A stretch of DNA of 59,484 bases, counting the filler, from Jimgerdemannia flammicorona (taxonomy: Eukaryota): the NCBI GenBank assembly GCA_003990765.1. It is 3 parts of 3 records of this genome, joined end to end, with 100 filler letters (N's around TTAATTAATTAA, not from the genome) between each part and the next. Parts side by side here need not be neighbours in the genome. Positions count along the whole stretch, not along the records: positions 19,868 to 39,628 come from RBNJ01001856.1; 2 more parts are not named here. One strand, given 5' to 3'. The notes under the pieces were generated by a model that was not told the DNA's origin, did not search any database, and worked only from the letters and a program-made list of their open reading frames with translations. Both the position numbers and the translations under genes were made by a program. This document shows, piece by piece, positions 7,426-49,827 of this stretch; within the stretch, counting starts at the first letter, position 1, and the number at the start of each line of letters is the position of its first letter.

Positions 7426-7429
7426 TATA

Positions 7430-15500: not shown

Positions 15501-15559
15501 TTGTAATTTTTTGACCTTTATTAAATTAAATAATTTTTTTATTATTGTTAATTAAAAGT

Positions 15560-15648
<89 letters not shown>

Positions 15649-15785
15649 CAATATTTTCTATATTTTGAGATATATGATCATTAATATAAATTAAAGTAGA
15701 ATACAAATTTACCTTTTTAATAGTATAAGCTATTTTTAATTAGGATATTTGTTTTTTTAAATAGTATTTTTTAAAAAATAAAATG

Positions 15786-16150
15786 AATAATTGAGATAGA
15801 ATAATAAATAATAATTGAGACAAAATGATAAATAAAAATTAAGATAAAATAATAATTAGAATAATAATTGAGACAGAATAATAATTGTAATAAAATAATG
15901 AATAATTATTAAAATAAAATAATAAATAATAATTAAGATAGAATAATGAAAATAATTAAGATAAAATAATAAATAATAATTAAAATAGAATAATAATTGA
16001 GATAGAATAATAATTAAAATAGTAATTGAGATAGAATGATGATTAGAATAATAATTGAGATAAAATAATAAATGATAATTGAGAAATAAATAATAATTAA
16101 GAAAAATGATAATTGAGATAGAATAATAATTGAGATAGATAATTAAAATA
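15786..16150. repeat. AT-rich array of aataattgagatagaat units
   Basis: Directly visible. Interconvertible with the 13687-13812 unit almost entirely by C>T/G>A changes. Confidence 0.85.
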
Positions 16151-28047: not shown

Positions 28048-29571
28048 TTAATTTTTCTTGCGCTTAATCAAACTCCCCGACAAAATATTAACCACGGGTT
28101 CCTGCGTCGCCTCCACCCTCTTCCTCTTTACCATACCCTGCAAATCGTTCACCTGCGCCCCAGCAGCAATGCCAATCGCACCACCCTGCGTCCCCCTCTC
28201 TCCAATTCCAGGATCGTCGGTGGTCATGACGATCGTCGGCACGGACGCCTGGACTTCAGCGCCCTGTACGAACTCGGTAAACTCCCTCGTTGACGTGACC
28301 GCCGCCTCGCGGGTCGAGAAGTCCGCGAACATAAGCTTGTTCCATGCCAGGGTGAAGCGGTCTTGGGTCAGCCCTTTGTCGCGCCAGGCCTCGCCTTGCT
28401 TGTTCTGTTCCTCTCCGTCTTTGGTGGCCTCTTTGCGCCCACCGATCTCTACCACAAAGAACCCCGCGAGCTGACCGGCTCCGCATTCCTCCCCGATTGA
28501 CATCAGCTCCCAGAACTCCTGCACCGTGATCTCTCCCTCCCCTTCCTCTTTCTCTTCCTTTCCATCCTCTGTCTTCCCCTCTTCCTCCCCTTCTCCCTCT
28601 CCTTCCTCTCCTTCCTCTTCCTCCTCTTCCTCTCCCTCTCCCTCACTCTCCCTCTTTTCACCCCCTCCCCCTTCTCCTTCCATGCCCTCCTCATTCTCCT
28701 CGTCACCACTCTCATCACGATCGGCTTCCGCAGGTTCTTCGTCATCACTCCCAACAACGCGACCGTCTCCGTAAGTGCGGAACAACCGCTGCTTAGGATC
28801 GTCCTGGAATTGCGGAATCACGTCCCGGGCGCGCGCGCTAGGGTCATGCGGATACCCGTACGTCCAGCGAACGCCATTAGTGGCAGTGGCGGTGGCGGCA
28901 GGGATTGTCTCGCGGATGGCGCTGCAAGCGACCCGTTCAGTCTCGACTCCCGGGATAAACCACCACGCCTTCATGGGCGGCCCCCCCTGTGTTGCCGACT
29001 CTCCGACGACGTTCGCGGCATCCCACGTATTAAACGGCCCTGTCAGCGCCCTCTTCCACCACCGGATGAGGCCGCGATCGTCCTGAGCGCGCTTGAGCGG
29101 ATTCTTGGAGGAGCGGGCGAAGAGGTATTGCGGCTGTGCGCGGGCAAACACGTGGATAGTCGTTGTTGGGGGAAGAGATGCAATGTAGGCGGTGATGAGG
29201 GCGCGGGTTGGGGAGGTAAGAGAGTGGTTTGTGGGACGTGGCCAATAGCCTGAGGTGTCGACCTTGGAGATGTAGGCGATGAGGGAGGGTGTTGGGGTTG
29301 TGGTGGAGTATTCGTAAGTTTCGAGACCGCAGATGAGGATTTCAGGGGAGGTGTCTGTAGATGCCTCTGCGGGGAGGTTGAGTGGTGGACGGTGCGAGAC
29401 CAGGAGGAGGCGGTGCACGAGGGTGCAGTCGGGGTCTGGGGTCGAGACGAGGGGCTTGCAGGGTTTGGGTTTGGTGGAGAGGTTGTGGATGGTGAATGTG
29501 TGGGTTCCTGGTATCCGAGAAAAGGTATCAGCCAGTGATTTTTCGAGGGTTGCGGAGTTGAGGAATGGCAT
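28048..29571 (-). CDS. RTT109: Histone H3K56 acetyltransferase Rtt109 (KAT11), intronless
   Basis: Motifs YISKVDTSG, VFARAQPQYLF..S.KNP.K..DDRGLIRWW, IPQFQDDPKQR, EFWELM...EC.AG...GF and a C-terminal VNxL...KRK. The first ATG (MPFLNS) is at 29571. Confidence 0.95.
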   Translation of the reverse strand: MPFLNSATLEKSLADTFSRIPGTHTFTIHNLSTKPKPCKPLVSTPDPDCTLVHRLLLVSHRPPLNLPAEASTDTSPEILICGLETYEYSTTTPTPSLIAYISKVDTSGYWPRPTNHSLTSPTRALITAYIASLPPTTTIHVFARAQPQYLFARSSKNPLKRAQDDRGLIRWWKRALTGPFNTWDAANVVGESATQGGPPMKAWWFIPGVETERVACSAIRETIPAATATATNGVRWTYGYPHDPSARARDVIPQFQDDPKQRLFRTYGDGRVVGSDDEEPAEADRDESGDEENEEGMEGEGGGGEKRESEGEGEEEEEEEGEEGEGEGEEEGKTEDGKEEKEEGEGEITVQEFWELMSIGEECGAGQLAGFFVVEIGGRKEATKDGEEQNKQGEAWRDKGLTQDRFTLAWNKLMFADFSTREAAVTSTREFTEFVQGAEVQASVPTIVMTTDDPGIGERGTQGGAIGIAAGAQVNDLQGMVKRKRVEATQEPVVNILSGSLIKRKKN

Positions 29572-29620
29572 GGCTTGTTTCAATGAAGCGCTTGGAGGAA
29601 CCAAGCGGCGAACTTACAAA

Positions 29621-29661: not shown

Positions 29662-30572
29662 ACATATTCCAGTTACTTTGTATAGCAACTTCTTTTGATT
29701 TCTTACTATCTGGTTAGAAAGTGTACTGACGATGACATTTGTGTGGAAGATTCTTCAATAGTACAATCAGGTCGCTTTTAATGTGGCCAAATAAATGTTT
29801 CTTGGGCCACTTTGATAGCAGATCATATGCCATGTGATTTTCGTCACTGATATTACGTCAATTAACTTGTCAGAAACTCCGATGGAACTTCTTGTCCCCC
29901 ATGATTCGAAGCCATGTGCATGCGTACTTTGTCAATGTACACAATCTTGAACATTCTGCACTGTTTGCAGAGTGCTTCTACGTATCGTATCGCTTTTTTG
30001 TCTTTTTTCACAGTAATAAAAGGAAGCACATTGATGAGTGTGTATGTCGTGCTTTGGTTAACCGGGATTATAGAAAAGAAGGTTGCAGTTGTCATCAACG
30101 GGATTCCCGATGTGTCGACGACGTTGAAGGTCAGAGGATGCAAGCACATTTCGGGTGGGTACATGGTACGGACATTATTTTCATTCCTCCACGGCACATG
30201 TCAAACGAAGTGTTGAACACGAGACGAGCAAATCGACACCCGAAGTTTATGAACAAGACTCAAAAATCAAATGTCCAAGAAAAGGAAACAAAAGAAGCAA
30301 ACAGGAGGAAAAATAAAAATAAAAAACAAAAACACAGGGTACCAGGTCAAGACGAGAAACCGCCGTATTACTAATTATCTATATACAACTCAGTACCGAA
30401 ATGATATGCAGCTCACGCTTCCTTTCCGAACGTATAGCGGGCACCACTCTTGCCAATACCAGCACTTCCTGAGGCTCCGAGATATCCAACTAAAAGAAGT
30501 ATGGAATAGAAATGGATGGAGATTAGATCTTATGCAAAAGTCCAGCCTAGCGGATCTCTACCATACCCCAGT

Positions 30573-33500
30573 TCAAAGAGGACGAAACCTACCACCATAA
30601 CTCTCCCTCCGACTCGACGGACCAGCGACATCCGCGTTCTGGCCGAAATGGGTGTCAACGATCTCATCAAAAATTTCATCTGCATCAAAGAATTCCTCGG
30701 CATCCACGAATTCATCGTCATCGGAATCGCTGTCGTCTTGTGCCTCGCCATGCTCCCCCTCCTGAAGACCCTCATCCTCCATGTAGACCGACTCCTCTTC
30801 GTCTGTCTCGTAATTGTTCTGCTGCATCTCGTCTTCCGTTTGAAGACTCAACGCCAGCGCCGCAGCCAATTCCAGTTCCTCCTGCTCCTCCACGGTCAAC
30901 ACCTCCGTGACGGGCTGCTGCTCCTGCGCCATCTCATCCTGCCTCTTGCACAACAGATTGTATGCTTCGTACACGTGCCCGACCAGCAGCGACTCAGGCA
31001 ATGTAGCAATGACATCATCGTCCTCGGATATCAAATCCTGCCACTTGCCAATGATGGGATCGTCAGGCGCCAAGTTGCTGTTGGCGCTCGTGAGGTATCG
31101 GATGACGAATTTCCTCAGTGCAGCGCAAAGTTTGTCGTATGATGTGATGTTTGTGGTTGTCATGATGAACTCCTCCGTGATGATGTCACCTGCCTCGAGT
31201 GGTATCCTGTACTTCTCCGGCACAAGGTCAAACAGGACGTTCGAGACCATATTCTCGATCGTCTCGTAGAAGGCGACGACATGGCCCAGGCGCAGCTCGC
31301 CGAGGACGGTCTTGCGGAACAGCTCGGGGTTTAGGACCGAAAGTGAAGATACTGTCTCCGCGTCTGCTGACGAGCCGGTCGCGAGCCTCGGGGCTACTAC
31401 GCTGGAGTAGCTGAGCCATTGATGACAGTAGTCCTTGATTAGCATGTTCTCGTTGACCTCCAGCTTGCCGAGCGTCCTTTCCAGATAGCACAGCAGGATC
31501 TCGAGGTCCGAGAGCAGGTCGGGTGCCATGTCGCGGAGGTTGGAATCGTTCGTAATGTCTGTGGCCAGCCTGTTATCGAGCGGAACCTGCGGGATGAGGT
31601 ACTCGATATTGCTCGTGATGTTCATGTGCTCCTGGAACATCTCGCCACGGTACGGAAACTTATCCATCTCGGTCTGAATATGCACCTTGTTGAAAACAAG
31701 CATCCTGGCAAGATACGCCTCAATTTCTGCCAGGTCATACTCGATGACCTGTCCGCGGCCATACTCTGGCCTGCGTTGAAAGTTCATAAGCAACCCCCGG
31801 TGGTATCGCGACTTGAGACAATCGTTTGCGTCGGCGATGACCTGCGAGTCGTGCAGATCCTGGAGGCGAACGGAAGTGAAGGTGGCGCGTTGCTGGGCCG
31901 GTTGTAGCTGCCCGTTGTCATCGGTGCCGCTAAAATTGACCTCGGTGGGCTGAAGGAACACCAGAGGCCGGCAGGCGTTAACCTCGATCATGCCGACGTC
32001 GGCTAGGAAGTTGTTTTGGTATTGCGCCAGCGTTTCGAGGGCGACATGCAGGTAGACAGATTCGTCCTTCGGCTCGTAGATGGCGAACACCACCTTAGTA
32101 TCTACGGTCATCTCTTCCATCGGGGGTAGGTCCTCGCAGCCGAACCTCGTGACTAGATGGCGGACCGAGTTCCAGGCATCAACGAAGTCGCTGAAGAGCA
32201 TTACGAGCTGAACGTAGAGATGGTATTCCGATTTCTTGCGCTCTTGTTCCAGGAACTTGGCAAACGTCAGTCTTCGAGCATCTTCCCGCTTGATGCGGTG
32301 ACCTAGTCGAGCCCGGATTTCTTTCGGGAACCTGATCAGGGGCAATAAATACTGGACGAGGTTGAGATTATTCCAATGGTTGAAGAACTTCCCCAGGAAG
32401 GGGAATTGCCGATGCTTTTCTGGATTCGGTTCATAGATTGTGCGCAATTCCTGCACAAACATTTCGTCGGTGATCGTAGTTCCAAGATACCTCCACAGTG
32501 TGAGATATTGCTGCTGTTGTTCCTGTTGATGTGCGGCCAGATCGAGAGTCTCCATCAACTCGTGCTCCAAGAGGTAACCATCCTGCTGGACCTTCACAAG
32601 CTTCGTCCGGTATTCCGCAATGGACTGACGCAGATTCGAGATCTCGGGCATTAGGCACGTATTCATGAAACTGGTCATCCATGCCTCCCTTAAGTCGACG
32701 GTGGAAAGCGGCGCTATTGTCTCGGCATGTTGTTTCTCCATACGAAGCAGCACGGCGTGTAGCATCACGTGCAGCATATCATCATCGCAATTGAGGATAT
32801 GTTTGAGCACGTTCCAATCCTTGCAGATGTGGTCAAGGCAATACTGTCGAGGGTCCTGGTTTGTGACTGCATTTGCGATGGCGGATGGCACGAAAGCGAA
32901 GATGGAGTGAGTGAAGAGGTGTAGCACCCTGTAGGCAGTGGGTGTTAACATGCTGTGGGTGTATTGCGGATATTCGATGCTCTCAGGGGATTCAAACACA
33001 TAACCACGCAAATCATTTCTGTTGAGCGCGTCGTCTACTGGCCGGCTGTCACTAACCCACTGGTGGTTAGTACCACCAATGGTTCGGCCACACGTTGGAC
33101 ATCTGCTTTGGATCATGGGCTTTTGGATGAGTCAGATAAAAATAATTCGGAGACGTATCAATAAAATTTACGAACAGATTACCTCCTCAACAAAGTTGAA
33201 ATATATATATATAATACGTTACCAGCCCACAGTTCGCCACGACATAAATCATGCCACACGAACACTGATACCTTCTTGTAAAGCCACTGTGAACCGTAAT
33301 ATTGTTCGAGCTTATAAGTATGTATTTGGCAGCAGCACAAAAAAAAAAAAAAGCAAACTAAGTTAAAGTTACCCTGTAGACTGCAGAACATGCAATATTG
33401 CCGTGGTTTCATCTGCTGGACAAGCAACCACGAAGTTAGGCTGAACTTGCTCCGGATTGTGTAAATAAGTTGCCAACGGCGTGCATCTTGGTTCCAAGGC

Positions 33501-36500
33501 TGCATGCAATACAATCACGTGCGCAATAACAGAGTGACGCATAATAATCTCAGGGTTGTCATCTGTCTCCGGCAGAAGCGGGGAGTTGCGATCAAGTACG
33601 AGCCCATTGAGAAGTTGCCGAGGAAAACCGGTGAGATGCGGGGTGCTTGTCAGCCAAGCCGCGAGCGCAGCTTGACTTTGGTTCCACTGGACCGACGAAG
33701 GAGTGAAGAGAAGGTTCACGGCGGCGCCGAATAATCCAAGCTTCGAGTTGAAATCTTGAAGGGAAAGCAATTGGACGATACCAGACTCGTTTCGCGTGGC
33801 CTGCAGCCGCGAGAACGCCTCATAGGCCTGCCGTGCCTGACTTGCGAAAGTGTATGGATCGAATTCCTTCCGGGTATAGTTAATTTGGTCCCACTTCACC
33901 CGCTCGTTAGCAATCCACGGAAGCACGTCTTGGAAAGGAGCGCATCGGTCCCGAAGTTCCATAGGAGAGAGACCGAACTGATCTCGCAGGGATTGAAGGA
34001 AATAGACTACGACGCGGTACGCAACTGGCGTATCGACCTCAAGGATCAGATTGATTTCTTTTACGACGTCGTCATTGCCGTGAAACACCCCGCGGCCAAA
34101 CTGTAAGGCAAGTTTTCCAAACAGCGTTTTCATAAGCGCAACTGCGCAAATGTATTTAAGCGGTTCGCGGAAATCTTGGAGGATGGTGAAGGCGTTTTCG
34201 AATAGTTGGCCCAGTTTCGAAATGCTTGTTGGTGCCAGAAATCTCTCGCAGATGACATCGCAGCAAATCACGGCGAGCTGTGAATCCAACCCCGCATTAT
34301 CAAGGCATCTTTTAATCATCTGCATTTCCGTCGAAAGACCGTTGGTAGCATTTGCTGACAAGGGCAATTCCAGCACATTAAAGAATAATTCCGGTGACGC
34401 TGAATTCTGTGCGACGAAAATCTTTTGAATCAGCGAGGCAGACTGTGGCAAGGGATTTGCAATGAAAATCTGCTCCAAAACTCCAAGATTGGCAAGTGAT
34501 TCTCGGGAAATGACATCGGGATTGCAAGTGACAATCTCAAGACACTGAATGAAGAACGTCCTCTGGCAGTTGTGCTTTTCGACACTGTCGCGAATTAGGT
34601 CGGTTTGGTCAAGCTCGCCGAAATAGGTCAAAACATCAGCGACAAATCTTTGCAGATAGTCGTTGGTTAGCTCCGCATTGTGAATGTTATCCACGAGTTC
34701 CAAGACCCCGCGGAGGGGAAGTTTGCGCGGAAATACTAAGGTTGAACAGATTTCAAAAACACATTTCAAAAGCCTCCAAGCCGCGCAATTATTATACTCG
34801 GGAATCTTGGCGCACAGTGCGAGGAGTGTGTCTGCGTTGCGTTGCCAGATGTCCGTGTCTATGGCTTCGCGAAGCTCCAAAAGAACTAGCCGTGCAACAT
34901 ATGGTGCGAGGTCGATCTTCCTATCATCCGTGGCGTGTAGCAACGACTCGAGGTCACATCCCATGTTCGACATGCAGAACTGGACGATTCTCAGCTGCGT
35001 CATGATTCTCTCTTCGTTTTCCCACCAGTGGACGTGGAACAGGACGGGATTGGCACGTCCTTCGAGTTCTTGAATTACTATCCTTGACAGGAACCTTATG
35101 TGCTCTGAGGTATTAATTCCCAGAGACATGGTCAGCAAATCGGCCAGATAGAACTCTCCGTACTTCTCGAACGCACGGTGCTCCAGCAATGGCACGAATG
35201 TGGTAACCCACCGAACAAACTGTTCGTGGTGATCCAGGGCTGTCTTTGGGGTTTCAAAGTAAGTCAGCTTGAAGCCCTCGATCCTTTCCATGAAATGGCG
35301 AGAAAATGGGAAACGGAAGATATGCAAACGACCAGGGAGACGGTATCCGTTTGGCTGAGGTTCCGTCGTCTCGATCTTGAAAATGGCATGGTCGTTGAAA
35401 ATTCTCATCCAAAGCTCGTAAAGGGCGTTGTTCTCATAATCGTCGTCGTCGTCCTCGATGAAGAACAGAGATGAGAGGGCCGACTTTTTCTCCAATGAAT
35501 AGATGAGCTTAGCGAGCGGGACACGAACGACGTGACAGATCTGTTTTTCCAAGGCGCGGGAGAACGAGTTCGAGAGCTTGAGAGTCTGTTTGTCACATGC
35601 GGTATGATATTGCCAATTAGGAGTTCCATGCTTTTCAAGCAATGTCTCCACCTGACGTTGCAAGATATGGACGAGCGGCTGACAGTAAGGAAGCTTCTCT
35701 CCTATAATACTGCAGAGATTATAGGATGATTTCAGTGCTTAAGCTAAAAATATCTTGCCTCATAGCAACCATTTAAATGATAAAAATATAAATAATTACC
35801 GGATTCTCTCGAGGGATTCCGAGCTTGGGTCATATTTGATGCACAAAAGGCACCATTGCAACTCTTTCTCAAGAATATCGCTGAACGGATACACTAACGA
35901 CTTTGCCACGGCCGGCGAGGCCACTTCATCAACGCTATCAACATTTCCTTGATGTCCATGAATAATGTTGTATATTGAGCCATCAAGGAGAGACGTCAAT
36001 GAGCGTTTGCGTGGAGTGAGCTCCTCAATAAATATTTGATACCAATCGCAAAGGAAGTCGGAGCGGTTCTTGTCGAGCATCGGCGAGCCGGCTCCGACCC
36101 CACGGTTGATGTGCATCATAATGCATGCGCACTTTTGAGACCCTTGATGGGACGTCCCCAAAGCTTTGGCAAGGTACTCTTTGCGGTAAAAATCGATGAA
36201 GAATCGGGCAAGTTTCACGCAACCTTGACTTGACGTCGCCGGATCGCACTGGAGGATGAGAAGTCCTTTGGTGGACTCGAGCCAGAAGTGCTGGATGTTA
36301 CTTTGTAGCTGCGATTCGGAATGGAATAGCTCCAACTTTTCCACTGTGACGTCTTCCCTCCCAACACATGCATGGATGTCGGTATTGATATTAGAGAAGG
36401 TCTTAATGAGCACGTTTCCAAAGTCATTTGAGCCGACTTGGTCAGAGTAAAACCAGTCAAAGAAAGATGACAGGTGCGAGTGCTTCTGGCTGTTGAAGTA

Positions 36501-39500
36501 AAAGCTGTACCACCGTGCGACCTCTTCGGGGTTTTCTACGGCCAGCGGAGATCCTGTGGACCGGACAATGGCCTCTGAGCACGCAATCTCAATTAGATTC
36601 TGCTTGCACTTCTCAAGCATTTCTGCCTTGTCCGAGACTTTCCCCCAGTTCGAATGTCGCATGACAAGACAGCGGAGGGTGTTATCACCGCAGTATCCGA
36701 CGAACATGTCATACACGCCAAACATTTTGCCATGTGCTGAGATTTTGATGGCCCATGTAGCTAGCTCCTTGACCACAGCGGAGTTTTCTTCATTCAGCAG
36801 CGAATCCCATCCGATCCTCTGCTTTTCGAAACGATTTAGGAGGGGAGGGTCGGCATGTTCCACTGCGCTTTGATCCATTATAACGATGCATCTGAAATCT
36901 TCATGTACGGGACACATAGGGTTCGCGAACTCGCCTGGATTTTGTTGATGAAAATTATTATTTTGAGTCCTCTTCAACTTTTAGTGATATAAAGAAAAAT
37001 AGTCATAGAAATTTACGAACCTAATGCAACGCGACAAAAGTTCTTTTGATCCTTCCCACTGCCGACGCTCGTGTAGTTTTTGTTCCAGAGATCATAAAGA
37101 GATCCTAAATTGAGCGGGATAAAGTACGTAGTGATGATTAAATACTCCACATTTTAGATTTCTCATTCGCAAAGGCGAAGCATTACAATCGTTACCGTAG
37201 ATGATATCCAAGTCTTTCAAAATGACAGGCCTCCCTTCTTCAACACATAGCAGGATTTTGTTGAGGACGCCGTATGCATAATTGCTGCTATCTTTATCGG
37301 CCGGGAATTGTGACCCATACATGACTTGAGGGGTTTTTCGCGTCCAGGATTCATGGGTGAAGGCGTTCGCCAAGGTGTCTATGGTTAAGTCACTGTCCCC
37401 AATGGCCATGAGGTGGCGCGCATCGGGGTCTCCAAGACTGGCACGAATGCACTCGAGAGCTTGAGGAAATCTTGGGACCTCATTCTCACCATTCAGATGT
37501 TTCCCTTTAAAAATGGCCCGTGGGAAAAACATATTGCACAACATCTCAGGACTCTCATCCCCGCCAGAAAAATTGCGCGCGACAGCCTCTTGTACCGCTG
37601 CTGGTGTCAACTCCGCGTCACCTCGACCAAGACTTTTGACCAGCGCATAATAGTCCCGCAGTCCGTGAAAATTCTGAATCCGCTGATGCTGTTGATATTT
37701 GTCGTATCCTCTGGCCAGGGAGTCGAGAGCATTCTCTGGGAGCCTCACCGTCATCAGTCCTTTTGTAGTCTCCTTGACGTCGTTAATGTCCTGTCTTGGC
37801 CTTTGAATGCGAATTGCGCGCGACATTTTGGAAGCTGGTTTTCATTAGATTAGTAAGTATATTTTAGAGGGAGTATAATTTAAAGAAGGTACATTACACC
37901 CTGACGTGCGCATCTAGCCCCTTCTGCAGAAAAGGAGAGGATATGGTGGACAAAATCTTTGAAACTTACCGTCAAGTCGCCAGTTACTTATTCCAATCAC
38001 AGCGACTTCAGGACAGGCGTCGGGACCTTGCGGCTCCAGAAGGGCATGCAGAACCTTGAGGGGGTTGAATGGGCTCGTCTCGGCGAGGCCGACTAATAGT
38101 TTTGGGGTATTCTTTATTGTATCTGATCTGGATAAAGAAAAGATAATTGTAATTATATTAACAAGAAACTTTACCTTCATCCAATAAGACCACTGCTCTT
38201 GAAGGAAACCGATCAGTATTGCTCTTCTCCTGATAACGCTCAGCTTTTTTGAAAACTTTGATAATGCCTTCAGAAGTCGATGATGTTGATCCTTGATGCG
38301 GAATGACATAAACCTGGAAAAAGCCAAAGTTCTGTCAAGGCTCCGGAAGAAAATCAATTTTTATTGACGTGCGAAACCAGTGAAAGTGCAAACCTGAGGG
38401 TGAGTTTGAAAATACTGGTCGGATGAATCAAGACCGCGTAGATTTTCCTTCACAATTTTTATCGCCAGGCTCTTTGACGCGCCAGGCGAACCGATGAGGA
38501 AAAGCGGGGTACGGGTCAGAATGCAAGCGATCATAGAGTGTACATTCTCAAGGAGGGCCTCGTTGAGCGCCGTGAATGCCGGTAGTCGCATGCGGTGCAG
38601 GTAGTCCAATTGATCCTGGCGCACAATCTGAAGAAAATCGTCAGGACTGAGTACCATACGATGTTTACTGAGGAACACGCCACTGATAACGGAGCGATAT
38701 TTAGCGCGGTCTTTTTGTTCACAAAGTCTACCCTGGTACGCAATTGAAAGAGCGAGGACGATGGCGCGGACGTCGCTGAACTTGTCTTTTTTTGGTGGAT
38801 ATTCGGAGCATTTTGCAGCGGTACAAGTTTCTCGGTGAAGTTGAGACTTTTCTTTTCGTGCAGCCGACTTGAGTTCCTTATCAAAGAAATTTGCAAACCG
38901 GATAGCCCGCTTGACGTCACGAAGGCTGACGCTATACATATCCTCAACCGAACGGATGAATCTTTGCGACTCGAACAGCAGCTCAGCAAATAGAAGGACA
39001 ATGGCAGATGGTGCCGGCGTCGCTGTTCCCGAAACATGTCGTCCCATAGTGAGGCTATTCGCCATGATATTGATGTATGCCTTCTCATCCCTTTCCTCAA
39101 GTGTGCCGTAGTCCCAAATGAGATCAACCATTGCCTCGGGAAGCGGATGGACCTGATAGACGAGCTGACTTTGTTCCTGATATCGAGTTTTCAAACCGGC
39201 GTCGTTCGTAATGGTTTTTCGCAAACGATAAGGATTGCATGCAGCCATCAGTCGAATATTTGTATGGATCTTGTGGCCCAATAACACACGATCGCATATC
39301 AGCGATGATAGCATCCGGATGTAGTTGCAAGTGTTCACTTCGTCCAAAAAACTGCCGATCATCAATGAGTATGATTAGAAAACAAACCGTGAACATGTTT
39401 TTCAACGAAAAGATGTTTTAATTTCCTTGGAGGATAGCATATACTTACACCCAAACTTCGCCACGCGTTGCACGTTCCTCTGCGTCTTCCATGAACTTGA

Positions 39501-39588
39501 TTATCCTTTCCTTTGTTATACCTGCGTGCAGGTCAAGCACAGCGAAGTCAACTTCTACCATATTAGCAAGGAATCCAATGAGGGATGT
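30573..39588 (-). CDS. RNF213: RNF213/mysterin-like giant AAA+ ATPase / RZ-finger E3 ubiquitin ligase (5' part missing at contig end)
   Basis: Ten exons join in frame via GT-AG introns (~39588-39449, 39351-38394, 38313-38175, 38092-37970, 37835-37196, 37104-37021, 36934-35800, 35709-33373, 33286-33223, 33119-30573; ~2700 aa). RNF213-type motifs in order: VFLDEVNT, AACNPYR, LVYQVHPLP..IWDYG.L, VSLRDV.R, ALLENV..PLFLIGSPGASKSLA, VVLLDEVGLAE.SP.NPLKVLH.LLE, IGISNW.LDASKMSRA, FHGLRDYY.LVK, GSQFP.D, SLYDLWN.NY, VHEDFRCIVI, PLLNRFEK, then the RZ finger. The symbol denotes homology, not proven orthology. Confidence 0.93.
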
Positions 39589-39628
39589 CTGTTCGATTAA
39601 CAAAATGCGGAAAGGGATCAAGTAAAAA

Positions 39629-39728
39629 NNNNNNNNNNNNNNNNNNNNNNNNNNNNNNNNNNNNNNNNNNNNTTAATTAATTAANNNNNNNNNNNNNNNN
39701 NNNNNNNNNNNNNNNNNNNNNNNNNNNN
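39629..39728. other. Artificial contig-joining linker (N44-TTAATTAATTAA-N44)
   Basis: Identical to 19768-19867. Confidence 0.97.
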
Positions 39729-41893: not shown

Positions 41894-44800
41894 TACCATT
41901 CAGATTACACAACCTTTAGAGGGCACTCACAACATCATTTTTGGAGAAAAGAGACTAACAATATGGCAACTGACAGGCAACCTGAGGTGTGTACTGGGCA
42001 GGGTGGCCCAAGTACTTTCGACTGGTAGCAGGTGGAGAGAGGCCCAGGCCTGGGGGGGGGTATGAGGGGGCTGCTGGTGGGTGGATGTAGAAGGGGTAGA
42101 GGTGGTGGCAGAGGCTCCAGATCTGGGAGAGTAAGCTTCATAGAGATGGTGAAGGGGAGACAGCAGGTATCAGGGCTGGAGGGCTGGCTGAGGAAGGGTA
42201 AGGAGACCAGGAAGGTGACAGTGTAGGCAGGAGCAGCCCTTGGAAGGGGGGGCAGTGGAGCTGGGGGAGTAGTGGCTGGGGAGAGTGTGACTGCTGATAG
42301 TGATAGGACTGTCAATCTGGAAAAAAATCCAGATGTGATAGCTGATGGTGAGGCTGAGCAGCTGAGGCTTAGAAGACAAGGGGACTTGGTGGATGGTGTA
42401 ACAGGTCTGGCAGTGGCCCCATTGCTCAAAAAATCAATTTCGGTATTCGCAGTTACACTGTGCTTCTGGGCCTAGTGGTGACAGTGAAAATGATGCTGGA
42501 GCTCATTGCTAAGTAGGTGGCAGGAGCTATGTCTATGAAGTTTTTGAAGGGACTGGAGGGAGTAGAGGTGGGTTTTGAGGAGGCGGCACTGCTGGAGGAG
42601 GTGGTGCTGCTGGAGGAGGCACTGAAGGTTGGATTGGTGGTTGGGGAAGTATGTGTTCTGATGGCACATTACCTGAAGTGGGATCCCAGGGTGGTCCAAC
42701 TGCTGGTGAAAGGAGTACTGATAGTGATAGTGATGGAGATGAGAAAGAGAGTTGAGGATTTCATGGCAGAATATGGAGAGGTGGTAGATATCAGATTCAG
42801 GGTCTGGGAAGGGACCTTGCTCAGAACTGGTGATGTGGATGTGAGAATTCGGCTAGCTGAGAAGGAAGCTACTGGGAAGGCAAGGGACTGGCCTTTGGTA
42901 ATAGTCTGGGGAGCAATCTTATATAAGGTGATGAGGGTGAAGGGAAGTGAGGAGGAGGAGGAGGATTTATTGGAAGCACTAGAAGAGTTGGGTAGTGCTG
43001 TAGAGAGGCAAGCAAAGGCTTGGGAGACTTTTGTGGAGTCGATGCACTTAGAGGTGGTGGATGGAAAGTGGATTCAAGTGACCAAGGAGTAGTGAGAAAG
43101 GGCTCAGAGGCATAAGAGATAGAAAGAGCTGCTGGCCAAGCTGGACAACAGACCACTGGGGGATATAAGCAAGGTGAAGGGCACAGGGGGAGCTGAAGCA
43201 AGTGTCTGGGCCAGTGAGGGGGAGGGGAAGGACAAGAAGGAGGCAGGGGAGAATAAGGAGAAGCCTAGTAATGACCCATATGCTGATGGTATGCTGGAGG
43301 TTTGGGAGGAGGACTGGGAGGGCTTCCCTACTCCTACCTCTCTTATCAGGCATGACCCGGCTTCCCAAAACAGAGTGGTCAAAGATGTGTCAATGCAAGG
43401 AGCCCAGAGGGTGCAATTTGGAGTTCTGGAGGCAGCATATGGGGGACAGGTAGTGGTGGCTGGAGAGGAGGAACTGGTGGATGTCCCAGAGGTTTGAGAT
43501 GAGTCTGCAAGCACTGGAGCTGACACCATAATGTTGGATGGAGGGAGGTTGGTGACTCTGGGGGGGAAGGAGGTGGGGAACTTACTTTGGATATGCTGGA
43601 TGATAAATAACCTGGCAGCAGAAGAGTTAGGGGAGGTAGACTTATGAGTGATGAGTGATGAGCATTGGGCAAGGATACTGCAGGGGGATGGAGTAATGAA
43701 GGCATTGAAGGTGGAAATTCTTGTGGTGTACCTGGAGGAGGAAGAGTATAAGGTAGATAAGGAGAGAGAGGCAGAGATGGCAGTCGTTGCTAGAGAGAGG
43801 GCTGAATACTGCTGGAACAAGTGTCATGGACTGCAGCTCTAGCAGGAGACATGTCTAGAATACCAAGAGGAGTTCGAGGAGAAGGCAGATGGAGAGATGA
43901 ATGAACTGCTGGCTGGATTGGAGGCTCAGAGGGCAGAAGAGAAAGAGGTGGCTGTGGAACATAATCTGGACATGGCACAGGAGGAGATGAGCATAGAGCA
44001 GTAGAGATCAATTGACAGTATAACATATTTCATTATGAACAGTATAACCAACATTTTTTCTTTAAATGTGAATGGGTTACAGGGTGCTGCTTGATGTAGG
44101 AACATTTTTACTTAGATGAAGAGATTGGAGGCCAATCTCTTCCTCTTGCAGGATGTCAGGTATAAGGATGATTCTGATAAGATAGAATGGATGAAGGAAT
44201 GGAGAGGTGTGGCGATTTAGAAGGGCAAGGTTGGAATTTTGATTTGAAAAGGCAGAGGGGAGATACAGGATGTGAGGAGCTAGGGAGAGAGACTGGTCTG
44301 GGGTGAGTGGATTCATGCAGACTGGGAGCTAGTTACCATTGGCTCCTGTTACTGCCCTGCAGTATGGGGTGAGTGGGTAGATTGGGTGAAGAGTTTACAG
44401 GAGAGTGGGATCCTTGCAGAGGCTGGGGTGGATATGCTTGGGGGAGATTTCAATATGGTTCAGGACATACTATTGAATAGAACAGATGGAGGATGAGGTG
44501 CTGAGAGCAGGAGTAGAGGACTGGTGGTATGGGAGAAAGTAGAAAGACTTAGTATGCTGGTAGATGCTAGTAGAGAGTGCTGGGGGAATAGGAGGGTTTA
44601 TACACATTGGGCAGGAGGTCTGGGAACAAGAATCGACTGGATTTTAATGGCCAGCTGCTAGGGCCTAGATGTTTGGAAGTCACTGGAGGTGGAATGGTGT
44701 CCATGGTCGGATCACTGGGGGCTTTTGGGACAGGAGTGCTTTGGGGGAAGTGGGGATGGACCTGGACATTGGTACCTCAATTTCTCTTTGTTAGATGACA

Positions 44801-47754
44801 AGACCCGGTGGGATGAGTGGGCTAAAGACATTTAGCTGAGGATGGAGAACTGGTGGTGGGAAGGTGCCTCAGTTGGGGTTCAGTAGATGAGGATGAAGGA
44901 GATGGTCAAGATTTACTGGAGTGAGGCTGGTAAGGAGGCAGGGAAGCAGAGAAGGTGAAGAGTGCATTGGGCTTCTACTAGATTAACTAGACTCCTGGAG
45001 GAGTGGGCAAGGCTGACAATATTGGAGAGAGAGGAAGATTGGAGATTAATGAGGGCAAAAATGGAGGTTGGGAAATTACAACAGGTGCTGCAAGAAGAGA
45101 AAGAGGCAAGGGTACAGAGCTTGGCAGCATAACTTCGCTGACAGGATCTGGAGGAAGGGGAGAGGCCTTCCAAGTTTCTTACAAGGACCCTTAGGGCAAG
45201 ACAAGTACAGCAACAGTGGGAAGGGGTGTTGGACTCAGATAGTATATGTACTGGTACATAGTGTATAGGACATTCTTGGATCGCTGAAGGAGAGATGGAG
45301 TGGATTGTGGAGTGAGGAGGAGGGTGGGGCAGATGCTGCTACCATTGACTGAATATTGGAGGATTGGCACCCACCACAAGTTGAGGGGCTAGGTGACCTG
45401 ATGATGCCTGTACAGGAGGATGAGATCCACCAGGTTCTTGCTGTGACAATGCCAGGTACAGCGCCTGGGGAGGATGGTCTGCCCTGGGACTTTTGGAAGT
45501 GAATGGTTGGAGTCCCAGAGGTGATGGGGGAGATGGCAGTATTGTGCAACTTTATTCTATAGATAGGGAGGTGGGTGGGGGAGCAGGACCTTGGACTGGT
45601 GATACTGCTTTATAAAAACAAAGGAAGGCAGGAGGATTGGAAGAACTGGCAGCCGATGATGTTGCTAGATATGGACAGAAAGTTGGTAACTAAGGTGGTG
45701 GTGGCAAGACTACAGAAGGTGGTCCAGCAAGTCGTGGGTGTTGAGCAGAGGGGATTTGTGGGTGATCAGCTCATTAGGGATGGCACTGCCTGGGTAAATA
45801 GAGTTATTGAAGGGGCAAGGGCCTATGGACTGGATGGGCATCTAGTCTTCTTGGACCAGGAGAAGGCTTATGACCGGGTATGAAGAGTCTGGCTGGTGAA
45901 AGTTTTGGATAGAATGGGGGTTCCATACTAATTCCGGTCAGCAATGGTCAGCCTACTGGAAGGGAGTAGGGCTGTATTCATGTGTAATAGACATAGAGGG
46001 GTAGCATTCCCCTTGGGTAGGGGGGTGCCCCAGGGGGACCCACTGTCCCCCATTTTGTATGCTCTTTCCCTAGAACCTCTTATGGACAGAATTAGGCAGA
46101 GAATAGCAGGGCTCTCTGTCTTTGGCATTGGATAGAAAGTTGGGGCCTTTGCAGATGACATGATGGTTGGTTTGGGTTTGATTGCTGATGTTGAAGAGCT
46201 CAAGAAGACTGTGGAGTGGTATGAGGAGAACTCTGAAGCTAAGCTGAATTGGCATAAGTGTGAAACAATGGTGCTAGGCAATGGCCTGGAAGGAGGAGAG
46301 GTTATAGGAACAATCATCCCCACTGGTGAAGCAGTATAGTACTTGGGTATCTATTTGTTAGTCTATGGGTCAGTTCTGCCCAGGCTTTGGTGGAAGCAGA
46401 TGATTGAAATCTGGGAGGAGGCCCTGCAGAGTTGGGGGGGAAGACAATTTTCTCTGGTAGGGCAGGTCTCGATTTTGAATGTCTACTGGCTGCCGAAGTT
46501 GTGGTATCTGGCATATCATCTGGACTTCCCTGCCTGGGTGGTGAAGAGATTGATGAAGTCAGCAAAGGGATGGATTTGGGCTGGCAGGCAGAGTCAGATT
46601 AATTGGGAGACCTTGTCCCTATCAGTGGTGAGAGGTGGTCTTGGGCTGGTTGACTTTCCAAAATAGTTACACTGCTTGAGAGCATGGTGGCTAAAGAGGG
46701 CAGTGGAATTGTGAGAAGGTGGTTAGATTCCTCTGCTGCAGAAGATCTGGGAGAGGTAGTCATTGCTAAGAGGCTCAACTGGCGATCTCCTCTTATTGGT
46801 TGGACTTCAGAATACTGAACAACTGCAATATAAGGGATTTTGGTGGGGGATAGTAGAAGGGGTGCACTGCATTGGAATTTGTTAGCAGGGAAATGAAGGA
46901 GAGGTGGCTTGGGACCTGGTGATGTGGAGATGGGATCATATACTGCTGGGTGGCACTCCTTTAATTGAGTTTGACATTGGTGATGGAATGAAATGCCAAA
47001 GGGGACCAGGCCAGGATCTGTGGCCTAGCGGTTGGCAAGGAGTTGGAATTGGCAAAGAGTGGAACTGACATGGTGTTTGGACCTGGAGTGCCGCAGTGAA
47101 GAAGTGGATGCTGCTAAAGTACTGGGTGGTCTGGTGGCACATGCTGTGGAGGAATATAATGCTCAACTTTCGCTCAGGGCACCTTATCATAGGGGGTTGC
47201 TTCGACTGTGAGGAGTGCCATAATGTAGGGCAGGAGGGGGATTATGTACAGACACCTGAACATTGGCTAGGAGAGTGTAAGGTGTTGGGGGATTTTTGGC
47301 AGACAATTGGGGAATGCTTGGGGGTATGGCATAGGGGAGATGAAGTATGGGGGAGGTGGGAGGACTTGAGGGATAGATTGGTAGGGGGGATAGAGATGGA
47401 GTGGCTTACTTTGGGCTGGGCTTTGACTATTTGAGTGGGGCTGGCCAGTTACTGGCTATTTGTTTTTGAGGATAGGAGGAGATAGGACTTGGGGGATCAG
47501 TTGTTGTGGTGGCATAGGCTTATGGAAGACACCTTAACAGGCTGGTGGCTTGGTTGGGGGCTGTAGAGTGGTCAGAGGTACTGCTTAGTAGAGAAAATTT
47601 GTGGACAGAGTAGGGGGAGAGTTAGAGTAGTTGATGGAAGGGTGATCTTTGTTCATAAAGAGGTGGGGAGGGGCCCCCCTATGGGGATTGGATAGTGGGT
47701 GGTGGTGATGTATACTTATTCATAGACTGGTAATAAAGGTAGAGTCCAAGTGAC

Positions 47755-47796
<42 letters not shown>

Positions 47797-47805
47797 GATC
47801 TTTGT
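41894..47805 (+). mobile_element. Apparently full-length L1/Tx1-clade LINE (~5.9 kb) with poly(A) and a 14-bp TSD
   Basis: TSD aaagtgatctttgt at 41880-41893 and 47792-47805. Removing the insert restores the gag frame (QKVIFV/QRYWTAR). ORF1 relic at ~42030-44020, ORF2 from 44035. Confidence 0.93.
44035..47695 (+). pseudogene. LINE ORF2 (APE endonuclease, RT, C-terminal Cys/His knuckle), stop-interrupted
   Basis: SLNVNGL, LLQDV, GGDFN, RIDWIL, SDH; APGEDGL, WQPMMLLDMD.K, QRGFV, LDQEKAYDRV, GVPQGDPLSP, FADD, YLG; C..C...EHWLGEC. Confidence 0.92.
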
Positions 47806-49417
47806 ACAGAGATATTGGACTGCTAGATACTCTGCTGAACACTCAATAGAGAAAATAACTGGCATCAAGATAGAGCCATCAAAGCCAACTAGTATCATAT
47901 CTACTACAGTTATAAACAGACAACCATCCCTACCTACCCCCAAGGCAGCCAAAGCTGACCCAGTGGAGGAACTCACCAAGCAGTTTGCTGAGATAACTGT
48001 ATATCTTGGTGATATTGTTAGAGAAGTCTGAAGTACCAACAGGAGACCAGTACAGAGATTTGCAGCTGCTACAGAAGAATATAATATCACATACTTCAGA
48101 TGTAAAGAAGAAGGCCACTATATAAAGAGTTGCATGACTGAAATAAGATGCAAAGCCCAACCAAGCAATGCTAGCAGAATCAGAGAACAAATCAATGCAG
48201 TAGTCATCAAGGAGATTGGTAACACTGATAATAAAGAATACTATAAGAAACTTGAATTCTACCCTGCTACTAAAGATACCAGAACTCAGTCCAAGTCCTA
48301 TGACAAGAAGAGCAACAGCAAGTCAGTTAGAAGACCAAAGAAGACCCCAGCTATCACTATTCAAAGCAAGACCCAATCTGAGAAGATTGATCAAGATATG
48401 GAGTTAAATAAAGCTGCCTACCAAATCATTGAAGGCACTACTCCAGTCTTAGTAGAAAGTGAAAGCAAGAAGGAATAGAAGCTGCATAAGACTAAGATCC
48501 ACTAGTATGATATCTACAAGGACCTCAAGAAACAGAAGATCAATGCTACTTTTGGACAGCTAGCTGAAGTTCCTGCCTTTAGACAGCAGTTAAGAGTAAG
48601 ACTTACAACTACCACCAAGAATCAAGAGTACAAGATTATAGAAGCTCACAATGTATAAGAAGATGATCAAGAAGACTCAAGTGAAGAATCTGAAGACCAG
48701 TACAAGACATCAGCCTATACTCCATATCAGATTGAAGATTATATCTTTGATATTATCATTGATACTAGTGCTAGAGGATGCCTCATGAGTAAGAAGACAA
48801 TTGACTGCCTAGGCTGAGATATTGAAGAGTCCACCAAGATAGTCTATATCATAGCAGATGGTATACAAGCTACCCCTCTTGGCAAAATCTGAGAAGTCCC
48901 TATCAAGATAAGAGGAGCTACCATCCTAGTAGATGTGATTATTATAAGTATCACCAACTATGACATCCTTATTAGCAACCAAAGGTCAAGGCCATCATTG
49001 ACCTCAATGCCCAGAAGATGCAGATCAACTATAGAGAAAGAAAGGTATGAGTCTTTATCAATGTCTATAAAGGAGTTCTACTAGACATAGAGGAAGGAGA
49101 TGAAGAGGACACAGAAGTCTTCATGTACTCGATGAACAAGAATAAGAACAAGACACTCAAGCTCACAGATGAGCAGTAGTACAATAAGATTATTGATGGC
49201 TATGCCTCTCAAGGAAGATGCCCCCATGGTACTAGAATATACTACTCTGAACACCTGAATGACTGCTGGTCCTATATTAGTGAAGTCAGGAAAATCTGCC
49301 AACAGAAGCATAAATAAAAAGCTGCTGAAGCAAAAAGGAAAGCCAAAGAAGATGACCAGCCTCCAGAGCTTCAAGCTGATAGTGATGATGAGGAGGAACA
49401 AAAACCAGATATTACCC

Positions 49418-49827
49418 TCAAGATTAAGAAGTTTCACCCCAAAGCCAAGATCCCAGAATATAAGACTGAAGGAGCCATAGGAATGGACCTTGTCAGCATT
49501 CAAGATGCTACCCTCGAACCACAGACCACCACTCTACTTGGTACCAGAATTGGAGTCAAGCTGCCAGAGAACTATGCTGGAATTATCAAGACTAGAAGCA
49601 GTCTGGCCAAAAGTAAAATCTCAGTTGAAGGAGGAGTAATTGACTCTGATTATACTGGTAAGATCTTTCTCATAGTCAGAAATCACAACTCCACCACCCC
49701 ATTTGAAGTCAAGAAGTATAACAGGATTAGTCAGATGCTGATCTATGAAATTAAGAAACCCAAGATCACTAAAGTCATCAAACTCATCAAGATCAAGAGA
49801 GAAGAACAAGGCTTTGGATCTACTGAA
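49418..49827 (+). pseudogene. dut: Trimeric dUTPase domain within Gypsy pol, between PR and RT
   Basis: All five motifs present: GMDL, RSS, GVIDSDYTG, RISQ, R..QGFGST. Confidence 0.93.

Follow-up and report, generated by a model that had tools for sequence, protein, structure and literature searches.

Does the giant RNF213-like protein encoded at this locus of Jimgerdemannia flammicorona carry, behind its conserved C-terminal domain, motifs that would connect it with the endoplasmic reticulum (ER) and with ubiquitin? A first-pass annotation had proposed a ubiquitin-interacting motif (UIM) and an FFAT motif in the last part of the protein. We followed this up in the whole stretch of DNA, hereafter the window, which comprises 59,484 nucleotides. 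The UIM-type and FFAT motifs are real, conserved and transcribed short motifs, and the features discussed below are collected in Table 1.

Table 1. Features of the RNF213-like gene in the window, sorted by position
Feature	Position	Strand	Basis
RNF213-like AAA+/RZ-finger ligase gene, partial	30413..39625	-	tblastn of P0004; P0003 and P0158 gene models
Last coding exon, stop codon 30413-30415	30413..30489	-	spliced translation identical to P0003 C-terminus
Last intron, 103 nt, GTAGGT...TTTTAG	30490..30592	-	joint 30489/30593 in X1 and X3 contigs
LIR/AIM-like IFDEIV (F-x-x-I after acidic residues)	30657..30674	-	sequence; not conserved
FFAT core 2, EFFDADE, canonical EFFDAxE	30675..30695	-	penalty 0
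FFAT core 1, EFVDAEE, conserved core	30693..30713	-	penalty 0.5; DFVDAEE in P0004 and P0167
Acidic, serine-containing flank DSDSDDD, N-terminal to FFAT cores	30714..30734	-	sequence; flank rule as described in passages of PMC3261905
UIM-like helix EEQEELELAAALALSLQTE	30834..30890	-	P0001 residues 748-766; Pfam UIM 13.7 bits
RNF213-type C-terminal domain, RZ finger to last conserved helix (LPESLLVGHVYEAYNLL)	30948..33119	-	profile A2
RZ-type zinc finger, split by intron 33120-33222	33045..33279	-	Pfam PF20173; intron joints in RNA contigs

The gene is only partly contained in the window. According to tblastn, the part present corresponds to residues 1970-4683 of the 4685-aa orthologue P0004 from Endogone, and runs of N at 39629-39672 and 39685-39728 truncate the gene on its 5' side. 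The carrier protein has a size of about 4800 residues (4817 aa in P0158), the end of which was studied in P0001, the minus-strand frame 30573..33131 of 852 aa. The gene models P0003 and P0158 represent the same locus as the window and are counted twice in the homologue scan below. Splicing at the joint 30489/30593 is documented by a 17,564-nt contig (X1) and a 239-nt metatranscriptome contig (X3), and the loose end of a further contig (X2) is compatible with it. The unspliced DNA reads into a different C-terminus, ...GGRFRPL, which was ruled out; the true end is the spliced one, as in P0003. Thus, the UIM and FFAT motifs lie 58-115 residues from the C-terminus.

The host protein is a true RNF213 homologue, as its AAA core, its C-terminal domain and its RZ finger reveal. 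Residues 1417-2823 of P0004, an orthologue with 59% identity, match the AAA core of solved RNF213 chains at E 6e-122 to 1e-119; this comparison was made with P0004, the window itself starting at P0004 residue 1970. When a profile of 26 homologues (A2) was compared with the PDB, only RNF213 chains were retrieved (9 distinct sequences, E 1.8e-94 to 1.3e-93). Here the profile alone succeeded, as single-sequence phmmer searches of the PDB with P0001 and P0003 gave no match. The RZ finger reaches 55.1 bits on P0003 residues 1155-1198 and 58.1 bits on P0004 (PF20173, cut-off 27), and direct reading of the sequence gives the spacing C-x8-C-x2-C-x8-H. All three lines of evidence bear out the RNF213-like host named in the first-pass annotation.

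Animal RNF213 (mysterin) shares the giant AAA+ core, the RZ finger and the C-terminal domain, which is aligned end to end, but differs from the fungal P0004 and P0003 in that no RING was detected in the latter. Pfam revealed no RING family in P0004 and P0003 at E up to 0.1, and a C3HC4 regular expression found a RING in 0 of 18 long homologues, a pattern that a divergent RING could escape. In the RNF213-like proteins of Endogonales and Glomeromycotina, the RZ finger is kept and a RING is not detectable, which fits an RZ-based catalytic mechanism.

A second difference concerns the C-terminus. The A2 alignment stops 11-14 residues short of where the solved RNF213 chains finish, i.e., these chains end 11-14 residues past the last conserved helix, whereas the fungal protein continues for about 140. 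Since animal RNF213 stops about 11 residues past this helix, the tail of roughly 140 residues, acidic and probably for the most part disordered, is an addition. Aspartate and glutamate make up 33% of it (41 of 124 residues). According to the first pass, neither motif is known from the C-terminus of animal RNF213, and the solved chains are indeed without the extension that carries them. Our literature search retrieved no paper, in the parts of the texts it covered, tying RNF213 to FFAT, VAP or UIM.

The tail is part of the mature transcript. The RNA-derived contigs X1 and X2 run unbroken across 30593-33119 and keep the tail as exon, and the only intron that spliced RNA contigs reveal near the tail is the downstream one at 30490-30592. 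An unrecognised intron removing the segment, which had been named as a possible objection, is hence not found. X3, which stems from an independent root metatranscriptome, covers both UIM and FFAT; its sole difference within the UIM, 30869 A>T, is read as the conservative exchange L755M. The transcript evidence comes from X1, X2 and X3, and the runs X5-X10, with their small shares, do not enter it.

FFAT motifs are described in passages of PMC3261905 and PMC7396842 as a core EFFDAxE with an acidic flank, and in PMC3261905 and PMC7705450 as located outside folded domains. In the window, the stretch DSDSDDDEFVDAEEFFDADE (P0001 residues 800-819, 30675-30734 on the minus strand) contains two such cores, which overlap by one E common to both. 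Each has its own acidic flank: SDSDDD precedes core 1, and FVDAEE precedes core 2. The penalties given here follow a simplified scheme of our own after the Methods of PMC3261905, as described in passages of that paper, and not the published matrices. The near-FFAT EFVDAEE reported before EFFDADE and behind an acidic tract is present at the expected place. As for the "perfect" EFFDAxE, EFFDADE stands exactly where it had been seen, but the core conserved among relatives is [DE]FVDAEE instead, which is common to three of the four tail-bearing sequences. At the core-2 site, these relatives show EFFEADE (P0136), EFLDEES (P0004) and EGLFD (P0167). The second core of Endogone P0004 thereby has an E at position 5, a residue that abolished ER targeting in one tested case described in part of PMC3261905. 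About 45 residues separate the FFAT cores from the UIM.

A UIM consists of an acidic run followed by hydrophobic-x-x-A-hydrophobic-x-x-S-x-x-acidic. The window segment EEQEELE-LAAALALS-LQTEDE meets this consensus, with the core L..AL..S at 30846-30869 (minus strand). A single-sequence AlphaFold2 model of the tail is poor overall (mean pLDDT 48.5), with its top local pLDDT, about 70, in a helix at model residues 120-148 that corresponds to the UIM. The linker between the UIM and FFAT cores is modelled as coil, which extends to residue 189 with a pLDDT of about 50, and residues 190-202 form a helix of low confidence that meets the end of core 2.

Conservation was assessed in the only four sequences that bear the tail, namely the window (P0158), Endogone P0004, P0136 and P0167, the last two being short metagenome fragments. 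Over the aligned region the identity is only 30-47%. Nevertheless, all four reveal the UIM core together with at least one FFAT core with a penalty of at most 0.5. Preserved throughout are the order UIM-linker-FFAT, the A and S of the UIM, and F2, D/E4 and A5 of the FFAT core. The motif conservation in close relatives, proposed as a check in the first pass, is thus observed in each of the tail-bearing sequences. Length-limited homologue searches with the tail regions of P0004 and P0003 retrieved the queries only, a result that says nothing on the absence of relatives.

Scanning 156 homologues over their whole length (271,607 residues) yielded eight FFAT cores in six proteins at a penalty of at most 1.0; reversed sequences gave one core and shuffles one to three. 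Six of the eight fall within the tail, with P0003 and P0158 contributing the same locus twice. The Endogone paralogue P0153 is without a tail FFAT core, and the same holds for the tails of the other homologues scanned at this penalty.

Could the tail be a generic acidic-aromatic region that acts in cis, e.g., by plugging a basic surface elsewhere in the ligase, with the motifs as by-products of a composition rich in D, E, F, A and L? The high content of acidic residues would fit, and so would the finding that other homologues have basic tails, such that tail charge is not constant among family members. For ZNFX1, a related protein with an RZ finger, passages of a preprint (bioRxiv 10.1101/2025.10.14.682297) describe an autoinhibitory plug of negative charge. 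Moreover, when the penalty is relaxed to 1.5, the family's FFAT-like cores do not rise above background, with 14 observed versus 5 in reversed and 6-12 in shuffled sequences. We nevertheless hold this explanation unlikely. When the 124-residue tail was shuffled 200,000 times with its composition preserved, the canonical E[FY][FY]DA.E arose in 0.024%, the wider FFAT pattern [DE][FY][FYCILMVWH][DE][AC].[DE] in 0.64%, two or more wide cores in 0.002%, and the UIM core [LIVM]..A[LIVMA]..S in 2.0%. The wider FFAT and the UIM core arose jointly in just 0.01%, which argues against composition as the source of both motifs. The order and key residues of the motifs are also kept in 4/4 sequences, in contrast to the freely diverging linker.

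A further explanation grants a function to the FFAT alone and regards the "UIM" as a spacer helix or as the amphipathic terminus of the C-terminal domain. It draws on the Pfam scores, which modify the UIM claim of the first pass: 30834-30890 does fit the consensus and its coordinates are correct to the base, but the score stays below the gathering threshold (13.7 bits, E 0.058, cut-off 21). The same is true for P0136 (UIM_2, 14.8 bits, E 0.033, cut-off 21), and for the tail of Endogone P0004 Pfam lists no UIM row, even with E values of up to 10 allowed. Single UIMs are, in addition, weak binders of ubiquitin. Against this explanation, which we consider improbable, stands the core hydrophobic-x-x-A-hydrophobic-x-x-S-L/M-Q, which follows acidic residues and is aligned ungapped in all four sequences (P0158, P0004, P0136 and P0167). 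Furthermore, the helix falls past the end of the RNF213 C-terminal domain.

Immediately behind the acidic FFAT cores, F-D-E-I follows in the window, so that the tail resembles an autophagy-type adaptor such as CALCOCO1, in which the FFAT would bind VAP, the UIM-like helix the UIM-docking site of Atg8, and IFDEIV its LIR-docking site. Passages of PMC7396842 describe CALCOCO1 as binding VAPA/B through an FFAT-like motif and ATG8 through two regions, and UIM-like sequences as able to bind ATG8 via the UIM-docking site. This adaptor role is quite unlikely, as the fourth hydrophobic residue of the LIR-like core is missing at the matching site in P0004 and P0136 and P0167 ends before it; at the sequence level, moreover, UIM-ubiquitin and UIM-Atg8 binding cannot be separated. 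Because it is not conserved, IFDEIV was set aside.

We return to docking on VAP and binding of ubiquitin, a reading to which we give slightly more credence than doubt: a RING-less RNF213-type ligase of the Endogonales with an added acidic tail, whose FFAT would dock on VAP/Scs2 and whose UIM would bind ubiquitin. In the Endogonales orthologue group, the RNF213-type C-terminal domain has gained an acidic extension, probably disordered for the most part. For the FFAT, in its acidic and probably phosphorylatable tract, the most likely role would be docking, with the soluble ligase held at the MSP domain of VAP/Scs2, a membrane protein of the ER. For the single UIM-type helix, weak binding of ubiquitin is the most likely role; it might hold the enzyme on substrates already bearing ubiquitin, help in chain building, or serve self-regulation. 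The acidic tail with its FFAT thus suggests a ligase docked on the ER. VAP binding, ubiquitin binding, a cytosolic location and all downstream functions of the ligase we infer from sequence. The 25 long ORFs scanned in the window include no VAP or ubiquitin gene.

As to the partner organelle of the ligase, lipid droplets or endosymbiont compartments are a matter of speculation. Bacteria live inside these mycorrhizal fungi. One may picture the Endogonales RNF213 as a surveillance machine that VAP anchors at contact sites of the ER, where the FFAT would park the AAA+/RZ enzyme on the ER and the UIM, in the window together with the LIR-like motif, would couple it to ubiquitin- or Atg8-marked targets, possibly lipid droplets or intracellular bacteria. 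We regard this as a long shot. Were it true, the role that animal RNF213 plays towards membranes and microbes would be an ancient one, for which the Endogonales use another means of targeting. For RNF213, passages of the literature describe action at lipid droplets (PMC6400562) and ubiquitylation of LPS (PMC11958729).

With VAP docking as the preferred reading, the protein can be compared with the known FFAT clients of VAP/Scs2 (the "VAPome"). Like these, it has an EFFDAxE core behind an acidic tract and probably outside folded domains. Neighbouring double FFATs also have counterparts, as passages of PMC3261905 mention AKAP220, with two motifs close together, and RMD3, with two side by side. 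The difference lies in the carrier, which is a giant ubiquitin ligase rather than a lipid-transfer protein and for which VAP binding is predicted. FAF1 and USP20 can be compared as well, being soluble factors of the ubiquitin pathway brought to the ER by VAP: FAF1 is described in part of PMC4068158 as a ubiquitin-binding p97 adaptor interacting with VAPB, and USP20 in part of PMC3261905 as having a conserved FFAT-like motif within a loop. They belong to unrelated families, however, and here a putative ubiquitin-binding UIM adjoins the FFAT on an E3 ligase. CALCOCO1, a soluble ER-phagy receptor, is similar in that it binds VAP by an FFAT-like motif at its C-terminal side and contacts a ubiquitin-like protein by a helix or motif, but has no enzymatic core and, per its authors in the passages cited, no UIM-like sequence in the UDS-interacting region (PMC7396842).

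The locus presents a natural homologue whose added tail bears an ER-anchoring motif of textbook form and a helix of the ubiquitin-binding type, and a giant E3 ligase thereby joins the list of candidate VAP clients. RNF213 reaches membranes such as lipid droplets and bacterial surfaces, and the tail offers a simple testable hypothesis on how one member of its family is targeted. All this concerns a single orthologue group, with evidence at the motif level only.

The nearest full-length relatives outside the Endogonales are the RNF213-like proteins of the Glomeromycotina (Gigaspora, Ambispora, Diversispora, Acaulospora, Racocetra and Cetraspora), with 33-36% identity in the C-terminal domain. 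They differ by basic tails, many with a C-terminus of the hydrophobic-D/N-x-M type, and by zero tail FFAT cores with a penalty of at most 1.0. The Gigaspora protein P0125 carries an FFAT-like EFHDAHD near its N-terminus, not in its tail. At the far end of the orthologue P0004, the N-terminus is CBM20-like with 22.7 bits, under the cut-off of 23.3, and P0157 carries the source label "CBM20 domain-containing".

The 852-residue minus-strand reading frame P0001 closes in translation with ...TVEEQEELELAAALALSLQTEDEMQQNNYETDEEESVYMEDEGLQEGEHGEAQDDSDSDDDEFVDAEEFFDADEIFDEIVDTHFGQ... and carries a UIM-like string and two FFAT cores, EFVDAEE (core 1) and EFFDADE (core 2), exactly at the coordinates proposed in the first-pass annotation. 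The two cores share one glutamate and are directly preceded by the acidic, serine-containing DSDSDDD. The motifs of the RNF213-like tail are real, and they are also conserved and expressed; the interpretation placed on them in the first-pass annotation is supported in part.

Features of the RNF213-like gene and its surroundings (nucleotide positions in the window)
Feature	Position	Strand	Remark
Gene under study	30413-39625	-	residues 1970-4683 of P0004
Long frame P0001	30573-33131	-	translation
UIM-like string	30834-30890	-	translation; P0001 748-766
FFAT core EFVDAEE	30693-30713	-	translation; P0001 807-813
FFAT core EFFDADE	30675-30695	-	translation; P0001 813-819
LIR/AIM-like IFDEIV	30657-30674	-	directly past the FFAT cores
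Last exon	30413-30489	-	short
Skipped stretch	30490-30592	-	missing from X1
Skipped stretch	33120-33222	-	missing from X1 and X2
Skipped stretch	33287-33372	-	missing from X1 and X2
N runs	39629-39672, 39685-39728		44 bases each
HAT_KAT11 (Rtt109-type) histone acetyltransferase	28051-29613	-	E 3.8e-30
Extreme GC skew	42000-48000		+0.37 to +0.50
Extreme GC skew, opposite	54000-58000		-0.46 to -0.52
Reverse-transcriptase fragment	45563-45883	+	in GC-skew stretch
Reverse-transcriptase fragment	55505-56179	-	in GC-skew stretch
dUTPase domain and adjoining reverse-transcriptase fragment	49318-49932, 50509-50910	+	dUTPase E 6.6e-29
Very AT-rich block	6001-8000		GC 20%
Very AT-rich block	14001-16000		GC 13%

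Contigs of four public runs (X1 to X4), which carry no expression-level information, were compared with the gene. Those of X1 (17,564 nt) and X2 (9,008 nt) skip three and two stretches, respectively, all with GT..AG ends on the minus strand. These ends identify the contigs as derived from spliced RNA; the runs' own 'RNA' label is a guess. Both contigs span 30593-33119 joint-free, and consequently no unrecognised intron, named beforehand as a possible refutation, takes out the UIM/FFAT segment. The 30489/30593 joint is repeated in a 239-nt contig of X3, a root metatranscriptome of another study. According to the splice joints, the real protein end lies in the short last exon; once spliced, the translation has the same C-terminus as P0003, a model of the same species. 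A second X3 contig covers 30705-30949. Within the UIM, X3 differs at one base only, 30869 A>T; the L755 codon is hit at its first base and becomes M, which we read as a conservative change. Contigs of X3 and of X4, likewise a root metatranscriptome from another study, are 95-100% like the gene over 30342-33120, in small shares; they point to J. flammicorona or a close strain being transcriptionally active in the sampled roots.

An exhaustive HMMER search with P0001 yielded 340 proteins at E<=0.001 (159 at 1e-10, 40 at 1e-30), the best 150 of which were taken for listing. P0003, P0158 and P0004 come nearest to P0001 among the matches listed. P0003 (2040 aa, 100% identical) is named at source as a hypothetical protein of J. 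flammicorona; P0158 (4817 aa), which comes from a different record of J. flammicorona, belongs to the 90% cluster of P0003 and has the same last 260 residues. The orthologue P0004 of Endogone sp. FLAS-F59071 (4685 aa) is 59% identical. Its residues 1417-2823 match solved RNF213 chains at E 6e-122 to 1e-119, and its family matches comprise AAA, AAA_5, an RZ finger (58 bits) and, close to threshold, an N-terminal CBM20. Single-sequence searches with the C-terminal 852 or 2040 residues gave no match in the PDB; profile A2, built from 26 homologues, matched RNF213 only (E 1.8e-94). Together, the core matches of P0004 and the profile match reveal a true RNF213 homologue. In the window, LPESLLVGHVYEAYNLL forms the last conserved helix of the C-terminal domain. 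Beyond this helix animal RNF213 is all but tailless, its chains ending 11-14 residues past the A2 match, which starts at the RZ finger, whereas the Jimgerdemannia protein extends with UIM and FFAT.

Pfam detected no RING finger in P0004 or P0003, and the C3HC4 pattern occurs in none of 18 long RNF213-like homologues (fungal, amphioxus and algal; P0004, P0158 and 16 others). The RZ finger, described in a preprint as a catalytic E3 element in RNF213 and ZNFX1 (bioRxiv 10.1101/2025.10.14.682297), is kept in RNF213-like proteins without a detected RING; outside vertebrates, the family may be RING-less. The gene is cut 5' by two N runs, followed upstream by retroelement remains, and no match to the first 1969 residues of P0004 was found upstream within the window. 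The N-terminal part is found on a separate contig as P0157 (1194 aa), whose label reads 'CBM20 domain-containing'.

Among the best 150 of the 340 homologues, 89 have alignments reaching at least query residue 680, and most of those, among the matches listed, end in short basic tails. An acidic tail is shared by four independent sequences: the window/P0158, P0004, and the metagenome fragments P0136 and P0167, the last one (163 aa) added by a profile search among short proteins. All four contain a UIM core (hydrophobic-x-x-A-hydrophobic-x-x-S, then L/M-Q, with acidic residues before), namely LAAALALS, LTMALSMS, VDKAIALS and IKEAIALS, and past a spacer of variable length and sequence an acidic tract with an FFAT core of penalty <=0.5; P0167 has EEEEREIKEAIALSMQ and DDDDDFVDAEE. 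Conservation in relatives, which the first-pass annotation had left to be checked, is thus found wherever the tail is shared, at just 47, 34 and 30% identity to the window across the tail region. The Endogone paralogue P0153 has a C-terminal domain about 43% identical and an unrelated tail.

FFAT penalties use the weights that Mikitova & Levine 2012 give in their Methods (PMC3261905), with partial values of our own. Scanning 156 proteins over their whole length (271,607 residues) gave eight cores with penalty <=1.0 in six proteins, against one in reversed sequences and 1-3 in five shuffles. Six lie in the tail: two each in P0003 and P0158 (same locus), DFVDAEE in P0004 and EFFEADE in P0136. 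The others are EFVEALE (residue 532, Diversispora P0025) and EFHDAHD (residue 74) of the partial Gigaspora margarita P0125. With the penalty relaxed to <=1.5, the 14 FFAT-like cores counted in the family are no excess over the controls (reversed, 5; shuffled, 6-12). Three of the four tail sequences have [DE]FVDAEE, the conserved form of the FFAT; EFFDADE corresponds to EFFEADE in P0136 and is replaced by EFLDEES in P0004. According to PMC3261905, ER targeting was abolished in an AKAP220 test by an E in position 5, and a tested motif was weak when H occupied position 3.

Apart from the acidic tails, EFHDAHD of P0125 sits in an acidic tract near the N-terminus, just ahead of a CBM20-like region; here the RNF213 family may have acquired a VAP-binding motif independently. 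Many homologues (e.g., P0009, P0013, P0020, P0024) combine a basic tail with a hydrophobic-D/N-x-M C-terminus (...EFDAM, ...TFDTM, ...KFDAM, ...IFDQM); Glomeromycotina P0009, P0013 and P0025 are among the carriers, and a loose pattern for this end fits 18 of 164 proteins. Past its acidic insert, P0004 ends in ...GRAVDF.

In 200,000 shuffles of the 124-residue tail, a canonical FFAT core arose in 0.024%, a wider one in 0.64%, a UIM core in 2.0%, and the wider FFAT core together with the UIM core in 0.01%. Because the original reading went through 59 kb in search of any notable feature, the shuffle figures cannot decide the matter by themselves; conservation is the stronger argument. Pfam scores give weak backing for the UIM: UIM reached 13.7 bits (E 0.058, below the cut-off of 21) on residues 750-765, UIM_2 14.8 bits on P0136, and the P0004 tail brought up no UIM match even with E allowed to reach 10. 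AlphaFold2, run on residues 628-846 as a single sequence, produced a poor model (mean pLDDT 48.5). Its best-confidence element, helix 120-148 (P0001 747-775, pLDDT about 70), spans the UIM; coil extends to model residue 189, and a low-confidence helix (190-202) touches the end of core 2.

As described in PMC7705450, PMC3261905 and PMC7396842, VAP proteins of the ER use their MSP domain to bind FFAT cores embedded in acidic tracts; affinity is higher where the flanks are acidic or phosphorylated (PMC7705450). In our reading, the tail would anchor the soluble ligase to VAP/Scs2 and ubiquitin would be bound by the UIM. We consider the docking likely and ubiquitin binding a tentative proposal, slightly short of even; the combined statement we favour by a little. 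VAP/Scs2 is presupposed in J. flammicorona; the window's 25 other long ORFs include no gene for it. FFAT alone may be functional. Alternatively, the UIM helix may bind Atg8 via a UIM-docking site, giving a CALCOCO1-like module (PMC7396842); the LIR-like IFDEIV would suit this, although neither P0004 nor P0136 conserves it. Finally, the tail may act within the molecule as an acidic plug.

FFAT-like motifs are known on the ubiquitin-system proteins FAF1 (PMC4068158) and USP20 (PMC3261905), so that the RNF213-family ligase with its added UIM-plus-FFAT tail is a variation on kinds already described and no new kind of system. In a literature search covering few subscription journals, no title or abstract linked RNF213 with FFAT, VAP or UIM, or described fungal RNF213 homologues; papers mentioning both RNF213 and FFAT were, among the matches listed, mostly Chlamydia reviews.

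Downstream, the RNF213-like gene is followed on its own strand by the gene for the histone acetyltransferase, which has a long glutamate/glycine-rich insert. The two GC-skew stretches probably represent a single retroelement, present as two decayed copies that face opposite ways, and the dUTPase beside a reverse-transcriptase fragment suggests a retroelement carrying dUTPase. The AT-rich blocks are flanked by genes with a GC content near 50%.
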